Shown here: positions 48,496-51,793 of the stretch, in pieces | How positions within the stretch are numbered: position 1 is the stretch's first letter | Layout of the letters: every line of letters starts with the position of its first letter | Source of the DNA: a virus | Taxonomy: Duplodnaviria > Caudoviricetes | IMG/VR virus record: IMGVR_UViG_3300044641_005618 | Direction: 5' to 3' (one strand) | DNA: 64,000 nucleotides | Position numbers and translations under genes: made by a program | The notes under the pieces: generated by a model | Databases searched by the model: none | The model's input: only the letters and a program-made list of their open reading frames with translations | Told to the model about the DNA's origin: nothing

Positions 48496-51400
48496 TCAGG
48501 ATAGGATGTTGGTGATCATAGCGCCAGAACCAATAAGACCAGTTGCGCCGAGGCCAACTAGGTTAACCACACGTTCAATTGTGATTTCAGCACGAACAAC
48601 GCGGCGTTCACGAATGTAGTATTCGGGACGGACGGCGGGGGTGCCTGTGAGCTGATATGTGTAAGAGAAGGCAGGAGTCGCAGCATTCGCACCACCAGCA
48701 GGCATGATGGAATCAGAAGGACCGTTAGGGCTGTAGAACAGAAGGATACCGTTAGCGGGGAATACCGGCTGTAGGGTTCCATCTTGCGCTAAGTAACGAC
48801 CTTCGGCAACACGTAGGCCACGCTCAAGACCGAAGTAGCGAGCAATGACGTCAGTGTCGACGCTGTCTGCAGATGTGTACTTGATACGATCAAGGATCTT
48901 CTCGTTGGTCAGCAAGAGGTCAAACACGGCAGTACCGACGACTGCGGAGTTTGGACGGATACCGATTTGGTTGGCGACTGCACGCTTGAGGGTTAGGATG
49001 TCTTCAATTGGGTTAGAAGTAGCACCAGACCAGGCGGCGTCTCCAGCAACGGAGCCGTAAGCTGTCTTAAAGTTTGTCCAGGTTGTGAAACCGAGTCCGG
49101 TCTGGGAACCTGCGGTTCCGTTGTAGGGCTCGTAAGGGTTGTAAGTCGCGGTGACGGAAACAGCTTGAGCAACGGTGTACTCGTAGCTGTTCATCAATCT
49201 GGACATTGCATTCCTGGTTTCGATTGCGCGAAGATCTACTTGTGCAGGCAAATTGTTATCGTAAAGGCTCTTTATCCCTTACTTCTTTCTGTTTCCAGAA
49301 AGTTCAGACTATATCTTCACCTTTGCTAAGCAAAGGGCTGGGCGCTCGTGGACGAGTTATTGTTGTCGAAACTCATCGTCTAGTCGTTGAACCTTTTTAC
49401 CACAGAAATCATAGCGATTTCTCGACGTAGTAAACTCGGCTGCTGATTGCCTGTTTCTTTAACGGAAATTCAGGGATCCCAGCAATTCACCCAGTTAATT
49501 TGTGGTTAAGCTGCCACAGCAAGAGCCAAACAACCCTCGCCAGCGTTTTCAATTCAATACTGTTACCGTAAAGGCTCTTTATCCTTTACTTCTTTCTGTT
49601 TCCAGAAAGTTCAGACTATATCTTCACCCTTGTTAGGGTGCTAGGCGCTCTTGTCAGCTTCATCACTGTTCTAGTGGTATGCTGTTAGTCGTTGAACGTT
49701 CTCTCAGTCCCCTGAGAGTTTCGCTGCTGATTGCCTTGTGTTTCAGAGAAGTCACTCCTGAAACCGTCAGGTTTCCCAGCAATTCACCCAGTTTTTCTTT
49801 CAGTTTCTCAACTGATGGAGGCTATTGATTCAACCTCTTCAGGCAATTCCCAGGCGACCACTTCCTGCTCTAGAGCATAAGGCTCAGAGTCGTAGCGGCT
49901 TTGGACGTATGGGATGTTAGTTCCGTAAGCACGACGGAAATCGTTTATAGCAAACTGCTCCTTCCCAAATCTGAGAATTCTCCCAGCGCGGGTAGGGGTG
50001 TCCACAACCGGTGCGATAAACACTTGTTACCGTGAAGGCTCTTTATCCTTCACTTCTTCGCATTTCTGCAAAGATCAGACTATATCATCATCTTCCTTAA
50101 ACTTTTTAACAACGGTTCGCAGAGACTGCCAAGTATTACCTAGACCGGTTAGCCGGAACAGCTTCCTGGCCCCACACTTTTCGTTAGAAACCCAAACTTC
50201 ATGCAATAAACCTAAATTAGACCAAACTTCGACATTAGCCCGAGGGTTTTTAATGCCTGTTCGATCCCGGTCGGGTCTATTAGCGGCTTGCAAGGCGAAT
50301 TGTATAGTTGGTTTACTAAGTGCCTTATCTTTAAGTTTCTGTCTTGATTCTGCACTCCACACTCTGTTCTTGCATAATTCTGCACGAGCGGATCTTTCTT
50401 TATCAGACATTGGAACTTTCCTGGGTCTGGCCTTTCCTTTATTGGATTTGCCAATTTTAAACCTAGTTTCGTCCGAGTGTTTATGATGAGCTAAGGTTTC
50501 GTACACTCTGGAGTTTTTCGAAGACTCCTTGAAAGAGTTTATAGCTTTGCCTAACCTCTTTATGGAAGAGAAAGCTAGAGCCAGTAGGCAGTGAGACAGG
50601 TAGTGCTCTCTGTAGGTGAGTTTGATTAGGTTACCATCTTCATTTCCACCCTTCATGCACTTGGGCACTATATGGTGAATGTGGTGTCCGGGTTCTCGTG
50701 TCAAACTCCTTGGGGGTCTGGAGAGGATAAACTTTATGTACCGTTGGTAGTGTAAGGGAGAGTCGGGCGCTCGTGGAAAGATTATTTCAGGGTTGATCAC
50801 TTTCTAGTCGTTGAACCTTTTTACTTAACACTACTATAGTTAGTAGAGACCCTAAGTAAACTTGGCTGCTGATTGCCTATTTTGCAAAAGCAAAACTAAG
50901 GTATCCCAGCAATTCACCCGATTTTCAATCAGAGTCACCTCTGAGTGGAACCCTATCGATTCGCAATGTTGGTGGACAGTATGTTTTCTCTGCTTACACA
51001 GAGTGTCGGACTATCTTATCGTTTCTTTACAAAACGTTGGGCGCTCTAGCCTGTTATTAAGGGAACTAAATCCCCCAGGTAGTCTCTGAACCTTCTTCCG
51101 GTGTACCGGAAGCTTGGCTGCGGATTGACCCTTTTGCTAAGCAAAAGTAGGCTTTCCCGCAGTTCACCCAATTTCTTTTCCCCTACACCAAAGGGAGCAT
51201 GAAGCCTTGTGCGAGTGTTGTGAGGATTGGCCAGTGTTATCGCAAAAGCTCTTTATCTTTTGCTTCTGTATGTTTCCATACAGGTCAGACTATATCATCA
51301 TCTTTGCTTGAGCAAAGAGTCGGGCGCTCGTGGATTGTTCGCCTGTTCTAGGCTACTTAATCTAGTCGTTGAACCTTGCCCCTATCCCTAGGGGCCTTGG

Positions 51401-51793
51401 CTGCTGATTGCCTATTTTGCAAAAGCAAAACTAAGGTATCCCAGCAATTCACCCGATTTTCAACTTTGTTTGGAAGTTGGGACCCTAATTAATCCACACC
51501 TGCATAAGTTTGTTGTAGCAACTTGTTATCGTAAAGGCTCTTTATCCTTTACTTCTCTACATTTCTGTAAAGTTCAGACTATATCATCATCTTTGCCTGA
51601 GCAAAGAGTCGGGCACTCGTGTCAGCCTCATCACTGTTCTAGTGGTACGCTGTTAGTCGTTGAACCTTGCCCCTATCCCTAGGGGCCTTGGCTGCTGATT
51701 GCCTATTTTGCAAAAGCAAAACTAAGGTGTCCCAGCAATTCACCCGATTTTCAATCAGAGTCACCTCTGAGTGGAACCTTTATGATTCATCAT
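48496..51793 (-). CDS. Major capsid protein, split by six group I introns (7 exons, 351 aa spliced)
   Basis: Exons 51793-51785, 51518-51492, 51230-51192, 50976-50959, 50020-49833, 49554-49533 and 49248-48496 total 1056 nt and read MMNLQQTYAGVDPILTTLAQGFMLPSTNIANFIAPVVDTPTRAGRILRFGKEQF...ELPEEVIENAGEGPAQVDLRAIE... The gene follows the protease and decoration genes. Confidence 0.9.
49249..49532 (-). mobile_element. Group I intron 6 of capsid gene (284 nt, no ORF)
   Basis: P AATTGCTGGGA, Q AATCAGCAGC, R TTCAACGACTA, S GATATAGTCT; P3 CUGGGUG/CGCCCAG; P1 GAGGGU with GCUCUU; ends in G. Confidence 0.9.
49555..49832 (-). mobile_element. Group I intron 5 of capsid gene (278 nt, no ORF, phase 2)
   Basis: P/Q/R/S present; P1 GAGGU with GCCUC; P10 UCAAU with exon AUUGA; ends in G. 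Confidence 0.9.
50021..50958 (-). mobile_element. Group I intron 4 of capsid gene (938 nt) carrying a homing endonuclease
   Basis: P/Q/R/S present; P1 GAAU with GUUC; 7-bp P10 CGAUAGG with exon UUUAUCG; ends in G. Confidence 0.92.
50075..50800 (-). CDS. Intron-encoded HNH homing endonuclease with NUMOD3-like repeats
   Basis: HIHHIVPKCMKGGNEDGNLIKLTYREHYLSH motif, then HSDETRFKIG and WSAESRQKL repeats. Confidence 0.88.
   Translation of the reverse strand: MINPEIIFPRAPDSPLHYQRYIKFILSRPPRSLTREPGHHIHHIVPKCMKGGNEDGNLIKLTYREHYLSHCLLALAFSSIKRLGKAINSFKESSKNSRVYETLAHHKHSDETRFKIGKSNKGKARPRKVPMSDKERSARAELCKNRVWSAESRQKLKDKALSKPTIQFALQAANRPDRDRTGIKNPRANVEVWSNLGLLHEVWVSNEKCGARKLFRLTGLGNTWQSLRTVVKKFKEDDDIV
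50977..51191 (-). mobile_element. Group I intron 3 of capsid gene (215 nt, divergent)
   Basis: P AACTGCGGGAA, Q AATCCGCAGC, R TTCAGAGACTA, S AAGATAGTCC; P3 UUGGGUG/CGCCCAA; P1 UCCCU with GGGGA; P10 UUGGUG with exon CACCAA. Confidence 0.9.
51231..51491 (-). mobile_element. Group I intron 2 of capsid gene (261 nt, no ORF)
   Basis: P/Q/R/S present; P3 UCGGGUG/CGCCCGA; P1 GGAU with GUCC; ends in G. Confidence 0.9.
51519..51784 (-). mobile_element. Group I intron 1 of capsid gene (266 nt, no ORF)
   Basis: P/Q/R/S present; P1 GAAU with GUUC. The 3' splice site could alternatively be 3 nt upstream (51522), adding one Leu. Confidence 0.88.

Follow-up and report, generated by a model that had tools for sequence, protein, structure and literature searches.

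Group I introns of a lake-phage capsid gene as mosaics of one another

How did six introns within one phage gene come to share long, nearly identical blocks in different combinations? The question is raised by a 64,000-nucleotide (nt) stretch of viral DNA (Duplodnaviria; Caudoviricetes; IMG/VR record IMGVR_UViG_3300044641_005618), the whole of which is here called the window. In it, the major capsid protein gene (Phage_cap_E family; 48496–51793, minus strand) comprised seven exons and six introns. An earlier note on this DNA had described the introns as mosaics of one another, multiplied within the gene by spread in cis and reshuffled by gene conversion. On the evidence given below the six are group I introns, predicted to be self-splicing, and quite probably five of them form a family that radiated in the gene and whose hairpins were exchanged by conversion.

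Shared blocks and exchanged hairpins

Six matches to the Rfam group I intron model RF00028 were found in the 64-kb window at 66–103 bits against a cut-off of 50. All lay between 49285 and 51798 on the minus strand, the strand of every window feature given below. They corresponded to intron 1 (I1; 51519–51784, 266 nt, no open reading frame (ORF), 89.2 bits), inserted after coding sequence (CDS) position 9 and called the site-9 intron; intron 2 (I2, site 36; 51231–51491, 261 nt, 97.1 bits); intron 3 (I3, site 75; 50977–51191, 215 nt, 66 bits); intron 4 (I4, site 93; 50021–50958, 938 nt, its P8 loop containing a predicted endonuclease ORF, 72.2 bits); intron 5 (I5, site 281; 49555–49832, 278 nt, 103.2 bits); and intron 6 (I6, site 303; 49249–49532, 284 nt, 85.3 bits).

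The earlier note had listed four shared blocks, and direct comparison reproduced all the coordinates and mismatch counts given for them. I1 and I2 shared 101 nt with 1 mismatch (51654–51754 versus 51363–51463), covering P3-P4-P5-P6; I1 and I4 shared 92 nt with 1 mismatch (51687–51778 versus 50861–50952), covering P1 with its guide, P2, P3 and P5; and I5 and I6 shared 68 nt with 2 mismatches (49561–49628 versus 49254–49321), spanning the P7 3′ strand, P9 and the 3′ hairpin. The best 54-mer of I1 and I5 (51612 versus 49644) had 4 mismatches. An independent repeat search recovered the same repeat families. Over whole introns, I1, I2, I4, I5 and I6 were 62–79% identical to one another; the I1/I2, I1/I4 and I5/I6 blocks were 97–99% identical, variable hairpins included. 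Intron 1 had P1-P2 identical to those of intron 4, P3-P6 nearly identical to those of intron 2 and a P7.1 like that of intron 5, while the P9-3′ block of intron 5 was nearly identical to that of intron 6. Introns 1 and 4 both followed an AAT codon, as had been noted (exon 1, ATG ATG AAT; exon 4, ...GCG AAT). Intron 3, already singled out as the outlier, was 55–60% identical to the other five and lacked their 3′ hairpin. In a wider alignment it was 95–99% identical to the site-75 introns of two relatives (L002 and L011) and 44–45% identical to introns at other sites; it is best read as a separate lineage.

When the six introns were aligned, parsimony-informative sites grouped them differently from zone to zone: I1 with I4 in P1-P2; I1, I2 and I4 against I5 and I6 in P3-P5; I1 and I2 against I4 and I6 in P6; I1 with I5 in P7.1; and I1 with I4 and I5 with I6 in P9. 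Recombination detection, proposed in the earlier note as a check, was positive by two routes. In the pairs I1/I2, I1/I4 and I2/I4, the runs of concordant polymorphic sites went beyond anything obtained in 5000 shuffles of the columns (global p ≤ 2 × 10−4), and a neighbour-incompatibility test of the pairwise homoplasy index (PHI) type on the six introns gave p = 5 × 10−4. Judged from their sequences, it is well supported that the window introns are mosaics of one another, formed by recombination.

A module alignment was made from 39 distinct introns of the window and its relatives, in which each hairpin was clustered into types at a module threshold of 12%. Five stretches, GAAAATCGGGTGAATTGCTGGGA, CAATCAGCAGCCAAG, AAGGTTCAACGACTA, CACGAGCGCCCGA and GATGATATAGTCTGA, were nearly invariant in it. 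The invariant core stretches, of 13–23 nt, were J2/3-P3-P4, P4′-J4/6, J6/7-P7, P3′ and P7′; they alternated with hairpins existing as discrete variants, and the ends of the blocks in the window fell within or beside them. P1-P2 tracked the insertion site (mean similarity 0.79 for same-site pairs versus 0.44 for other pairs), which is no surprise, since the guide has to be complementary to the exon. Types of P5, P6, P7.1, P8 and P9 occurred in many combinations across sites and genomes. Four-gamete quartets (two types of each of two hairpins in all combinations) numbered nine for P6 × P7.1 and were found for several other hairpin pairs too. Domain-wise trees were discordant: in the approximately unbiased (AU) test, at p-values to be read as optimistic, a clade uniting the introns that the window lineage has at sites 9 and 93 fitted P1-P5 (p = 0.84) and was rejected by P6-P7.1 (p = 4 × 10−7), and the clade sharing P9 was rejected by P6-P7.1 (p = 3 × 10−68).

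Could the blocks simply be the conserved catalytic core, held by purifying selection with no recombination? It is true that the core stretches hardly vary and that they recur in more than 117 unrelated viral contigs. However, the blocks take in variable hairpins (P2, P5, P6, P7.1 and P9) that are sharply different in other copies, and near-identity falls in different regions for different pairs of introns. Moreover, the tests were significant on polymorphic sites alone, and the trees of different segments rejected each other's clades. Purifying selection is hardly credible as the explanation.

For introns at different sites, P5 was near-identical in 24% of same-genome versus 5% of different-genome pairs, P6 in 13% versus 4% and P8 in 10% versus 4%; label permutation gave p = 5 × 10−4 for the same-genome excess. 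One P5 variant was present in six of the 11 introns of a relative, L049, and most copies at those sites elsewhere (window site 9, L007 site 41, window site 281 and L007 site 353) had other P5 variants. The exception was the site-281 intron of L007, which had the common P5 variant of L049. Read from the sequences, the L049 pattern is the signature of exchange among the copies of one genome, and modules appear to cross between genomes as well. Segment discordance, boundaries at the invariant core and the within-genome excess of modules together bear out the swapping of ribozyme domains proposed in the earlier note.

A short-read assembler might instead have created the blocks, by mis-joining or collapsing repeats or by mixing strains. 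Logan unitigs of DNA run X1, the best DNA source, do break at the repeated blocks, and X1 has a second version of intron 1. Yet in X1 the 5′ part of each intron shares a single unitig with the exon before it, and the 3′ part with the exon after it, and other paths through the repeats would remove exons of an essential gene. Identical introns were also present in independent assemblies (L005 has the same I2, L001 has the same I5 and I6, and L007 and L010 agree in all five of their introns), and module sharing was seen across many separate samples. Misassembly is unlikely, and as the source of the shared blocks very unlikely; strain mixing may still account for individual module combinations.

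An intron family in related lake phages

Relatives were collected by scanning IMG/VR with exon 7, and intron content was read by spliced alignment at the 80 loci obtained. The capsid gene was uninterrupted at about three quarters of them. Introns were found after CDS positions 9, 36, 41, 75, 93, ~150, 160, ~192, 273, 281, 303, 318 and ~356, of which ~150, ~192 and ~356 were set by hand (the automatic placement gave 149, 191 and 353) so that the exon ends in U and the intron in G. Within the first ~356 nt of the gene at least 13 sites were occupied, and a genome carried anything from no intron to 11. The richest array was that of L049 (IMGVR_UViG_3300027763_000031; L049:2662–6699), with eleven group I introns and exons down to 8 and 11 nt; its exon-7 protein was 93% identical to that of the window, and L181 had a similar array.

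Phages that were otherwise nearly identical differed in their introns. In the window, L002, L005 and L007, the exon-7 proteins were 98–100% identical and the intron sets differed: L002 had introns at no sites but 9 (with an endonuclease), 36 and 75; L005 at sites 9 (with an endonuclease), 36, 75, 93 (without one) and 318; and L007, like L010, at sites 9, 41, 281, 303 and ~356. In DNA run X1, a joint from 51592 to 50758 with 620 letters between revealed the second version of intron 1, with an insert of ~620 nt. This was the site-9 endonuclease form of L002 and L005, at a depth of 17 versus ~100; one sample therefore contains strains that differ in intron form.

The predicted endonuclease ORF of intron 4 (50075–50800, 241 amino acids (aa), HNH-like motif plus NUMOD3) started in the P7.1/P3′ region and had its stop codon in the P7 3′ strand. 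It matched phrog_655, “homing endonuclease” (E = 1.3 × 10−22). NUMOD3 scored 21.3 bits against a cut-off of 20.4, and Pfam HNH 12.6 bits, under its cut-off of 21.4; the motif HHIHHIVP...N...EH was visible in the translation. All three endonucleases tested matched phrog_655. The site-93 intron of L005 was a version without the endonuclease gene. Endonucleases grouped by site (9, 93, 281 and 303, plus a single example at site 41), with 55–86% identity within a site and 27–46% between sites; site-93 orthologues in L011, L017 and L078 were 63–81% identical. Orthologues stayed at one site, and alleles with and without the intron coexisted, suggesting that each site is maintained by its own homing enzyme. 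The low identity between sites argues that the sites were colonised long ago; as ribozyme parts are 99% identical between sites, the conversions would then be recent.

A single endonuclease cassette moving between sites 9 and 93 was considered for window intron 4 and the site-9 intron of L005 (similarity 0.91). This was rejected, the two endonucleases being 39–40% identical over 128 aa. What the two introns had in common was confined to ribozyme parts upstream (P6 and P7.1) and to the first ~15 codons, where ORF and ribozyme overlap.

Introns outside the capsid gene were sought by a core-motif scan of viral contigs. The core motifs above were found in other genes too, their count being a lower bound. 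Among the matches listed, the best outside intron was at most 62% identical to any window intron. The best paralogue within the capsid gene was 58–77% identical for the five family introns and 45% for intron 3, and same-site copies were 73–100% identical to the window introns. In a 277-kb relative (98% complete) every above-threshold RF00028 match was in the capsid gene, and the same was true of a 201-kb relative. Site-9 and site-93 introns had homologous P1-P2 and the same guide, GGUUCC, in several lineages. Their target sites have only GAAU in common, which is the P1-pairing length and far shorter than the recognition site of an endonuclease. Such limited likeness fits colonisation by reverse splicing and is no proof of it; the route would have been either reverse splicing or endonuclease-driven ectopic insertion.

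These data bear on another explanation, in which each of the six introns came separately out of an external pool of phage introns, to which their likeness would be due, and exchange took place mostly between genomes during co-infection and not within the gene. It has several points in its favour: related introns with the same core and 3′ hairpin occur in other genes of other viral contigs, many modules are common to different genomes, intron 3 is a distinct lineage and, with site-specific endonucleases, each site could be filled by ordinary homing from another phage. But, among the matches listed, the nearest relatives of all six introns were in the capsid gene, intron matches were confined to that gene in the near-complete 277-kb relative, shared modules were commoner within genomes than between them and the site-9 and site-93 introns had a homologous P1-P2 and guide in several lineages. 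We consider six independent arrivals unlikely.

The comparison supports the view that five introns (I1, I2, I4, I5 and I6) are one family that multiplied within the gene, old and population-wide. Of the earlier proposal, multiplication within the gene is supported for these five, with their nearest relatives in the gene, and not for intron 3. The process appears population-wide and not confined to the window's genome, with 13 sites and modules common across genomes. In the relatives, where the presence and absence of introns had been put forward as a check, the sets ranged from none to 11 and differed among near-identical phages. Deletions, which the repeats had been expected to promote, were looked for in the relatives as loss of exons between introns, and were found in none of the 80.

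On an unrelated viral contig (L145:3679–5877; IMGVR_UViG_3300020414_002119), another gene contained a tandem run of six or more introns that have these core motifs. Genes crowded with introns may not be peculiar to the capsid family.

Splicing and the capsid protein

The exons were placed via full-length 351-aa homologues obtained in a protein search with exon 7, and a separate spliced-alignment routine recovered the same boundaries. They were exon 1 (51785–51793, 9 nt), exon 2 (51492–51518, 27 nt), exon 3 (51192–51230, 39 nt), exon 4 (50959–50976, 18 nt), exon 5 (49833–50020, 188 nt), exon 6 (49533–49554, 22 nt) and exon 7 (48496–49248, 753 nt, stop codon counted). Removal of all six introns gave a CDS of 1056 nt encoding 351 aa, which was 100% identical to the public protein P0002 and aligned end to end with intronless homologues and with the capsid protein of Synechococcus phage S-CBWM1. 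An uninterrupted ORF for the identical 351-aa protein was present on Logan contigs. Exon 7 matched PF03864 (Phage_cap_E) in Pfam at 41.2 bits against a cut-off of 22.9. S-CBWM1 was the nearest isolate by capsid protein (66.7% identity) and its gene was uninterrupted; it points to freshwater picocyanobacteria as the host group of the clade. A megablast search of isolated phages yielded nothing beyond two short matches to the core. The window was phage-like, with nearly all of its long ORFs on the minus strand, and the public runs containing the capsid stretch were lake-water metagenomes.

At all six introns the 5′ exon ended in U (T) and the intron in G, and a guide complementary to the exon end, with the G for the U·G pair of P1, lay 8–20 nt into each of them. 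The site-303 guide covaried with its exon between the window and L049. Compensatory changes were found by RNAalifold in 28 of 43 consensus pairs among 21 endonuclease-less family members, among them pairs of the P7.1-like helix (between P7 and P3′) and of the 3′ hairpin typical of the family; therefore, the hairpin variants have been kept as working helices. The insert of ~35 nt between the P7 5′ strand and P3′, a place where subgroup IA introns have the extra helices P7.1/P7.2, had one covarying helix (columns 182–187 / 210–213), and with this extra helix the architecture would be IA-like. In the site-93 intron of L049 (L049:3292–3568) the sequence ended in ...TATATTA, without the terminal G before the exon TTCATAGCA; this intron may be defective, or the sequence in error.

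Read in the frame of the exon, every window intron had a stop codon 0–8 codons in, before P3: TAA at once in I2, and a stop after 1 codon in I4, 2 in I3, 7 in I1 and 8 in I5 and I6. Such early stops would keep ribosomes off the ribozyme core.

Logan contigs from three metatranscriptomic runs had exact joints across I1, I2 and I3 plus I4. The I2 joint skipped exactly 261 nt and was found in three RNA runs; the I1 joint linked 51518 to 51785, skipping 266–268 nt; and the joint across I3 and I4 (50020 to 51191) retained 17–18 nt of exon 4 between. None of these RNA joints was found in DNA run X1. The RNA contigs (L081–L083) began 20–30 nt upstream of the ATG and encoded an intact protein, with 18 synonymous differences from the window, nine of them at consecutive third-codon positions in CDS nt 291–315. 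Across this tract they belonged with the alleles of L002 and L005, whose DNA is without I5 and I6. The RNA supports splicing at the predicted junctions of I1–I3 in a sister strain, and of I4 if that strain has it. A joint across I5 and I6 was also present in RNA and was rejected as evidence of splicing: it carried exon 6 of the L002-type allele, and that allele is without both introns in DNA. Dips in RNA depth over the introns, which derive from contigs, were set aside as evidence.

The nine differences of this tract (window 49237–49545) separated alleles with I5 and I6 (window and L007) from alleles without them that were otherwise nearly the same (L002, L005 and the RNA contigs). L005 had an intron at site 318 instead. 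In the alternative tract the site-303 splice position has G in place of U, and a GUGGAU arises that pairs with the site-318 guide. The tract looks like a co-conversion tract or a resistant target.

Exons 2–4 total 84 nt, and joining exon 1 to exon 5 would keep the frame. Introns 1 and 4 had the same guide, and both upstream exons ended in GAAU. Skipping from exon 1 to exon 5, of the kind described for orf142 of phage Twort (see below), is conceivable.

Public protein sets contained many truncated forms of the 351-aa capsid protein, of 232–327 aa (P0001, P0005–P0007, P0016, P0019, P0021 and P0025 among them). Gene callers had put their starts within or just past an intron, so that mis-annotation of the gene is routine. 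Capsid genes with exons of 8–39 nt are missed or truncated by gene callers, and viral marker-gene surveys are affected.

A proposed mechanism and comparison with known systems

The following scheme would account for radiation of the family within the gene and conversion between its copies. Each site has its own guide sequence, and five sites or more also have a diverged homing endonuclease to themselves; these enzymes would drive ordinary homing into intron-less alleles of co-infecting relatives. Homologous recombination (gene conversion) would begin and end within the invariant core stretches, so that a whole hairpin between them (P5, P6, P7.1, P8 or P9) moves from copy to copy, mostly among the copies of one genome and also between genomes. 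Because the whole hairpin moves at once, base pairing would be kept, and presumably the ribozyme too. The near-identical blocks of 92–101 nt in the window would be recent conversion tracts. Conversion as the mechanism, its direction and the first colonisation of the sites are what we infer from this pattern.

Several points weigh against this reading. The AU-test clades and the 12% module threshold were chosen post hoc from the alignment, which makes the p-values optimistic, although the effect in the AU test is large even so. The introns all come from short-read metagenome assemblies, and some module combinations could be strain chimeras; run X1 contained two versions of intron 1. Conversion within a genome and exchange between co-infecting genomes are not separable with these data, and any route of first insertion at new sites would be conjectural. 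The comparison with non-capsid introns covers only the matches listed. Finally, the RNA contigs come from a sister strain whose allele type lacks I5 and I6 in DNA, so that they bear on the other introns only, and a fully intron-less DNA allele could still account for the other RNA joints.

A bolder idea, which we hold to be rather doubtful, is that the 5′ third of the capsid gene is a self-renewing “intron nursery” and at the same time a weapon between phages, the array being inherited preferentially. Recombination among the resident introns would keep making combinations of ribozyme and guide for further sites. The battery of endonucleases would cut the intron-less capsid alleles of co-infecting relatives, and the flanking recoded exon tracts would be co-inherited. 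If true, this would resemble the interference competition by a single intron endonuclease described for phages PhiPA3 and PhiKZ (PMC12908238).

Phage group I introns with HNH or GIY-YIG endonucleases are known from td, nrdB and nrdD of T4, from the DNA polymerase genes of SPO1 and SP82 and from Twort (PMC2988022, PMC3984707); it is established that such introns can carry homing endonucleases, that exons are co-converted with them and that one phage gene may contain two or three (PMC2988022, PMC3984707, PMC11878797). Like the introns of T4, SPO1 and Twort, those of the capsid gene are predicted self-splicing ribozymes that interrupt an essential gene of a phage and can bear an endonuclease ORF in a loop at their periphery; they differ in presence and absence among close relatives and seem to show flanking exon co-conversion. 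Unlike them, the capsid family fills from 6 (window) to 11 (L049) sites of one gene, with exons of 8–39 nt. Its gene is a structural one and not one of DNA metabolism, and has several site-specific endonuclease paralogues.

In crAss-like and Jug gut phages, many group I introns, split genes and splicing supported by metatranscriptomes have been described, with the introns spread over many genes and terL in two to three fragments (PMC12880540). The lake phages likewise have many group I introns per genome and a gene in several fragments, whereas all detectable introns of the 277-kb relative were in the 5′ third of the capsid gene and were mutual mosaics. Related group I introns at different sites of ribosomal DNA (rDNA) are circumstantial evidence for reverse splicing; the same review states that there is no direct evidence for mobility by reverse splicing and names ectopic mobility as a future goal (PMC3984707). 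Like those introns, the capsid introns occupy different positions of one gene, and their targets resemble each other in no more than the few guide-pairing nucleotides. Unlike them, they lie in a protein-coding phage gene, at far more sites and with endonucleases present, and offer a larger number of independent site changes for analysis.

In a literature search we found no report of one intron family at 13 sites of one phage gene, of 8-nt exons between introns, of several site-specific endonuclease paralogues per gene or of natural combinatorial exchange of ribozyme hairpins. The capsid gene is an unusually rich natural record of the spread and recombination of introns. Its family combines many independent changes of site, guide-exon covariation, endonuclease paralogues and alleles with and without introns, a combination that could make intron spread testable by comparison and by phage crosses. 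The peripheral domains of these ribozymes would act in nature as exchangeable cassettes between core “linkers”, which is relevant to the evolution and engineering of ribozymes.

Two older cases come close to parts of this picture. Staphylococcus phage Twort is said to have three group I introns in orf142, with exon skipping (Landthaler and Shub, 1999). There too, several related group I introns lie close together in a phage structural gene, with 6–11 introns here compared with three there; neither module shuffling at the population level nor occupancy of 13 sites is known to have been described for Twort. In T4, intron domains were reportedly shuffled by recombination at common core sequences (Bryk and Belfort, Nature 1990). 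As there, recombination at a homologous core between the introns of one genome would have produced chimeric introns. The T4 shuffling was seen in laboratory selections and between introns of different genes, whereas the capsid mosaics appear as a widespread natural pattern among the introns of one gene and look functional.

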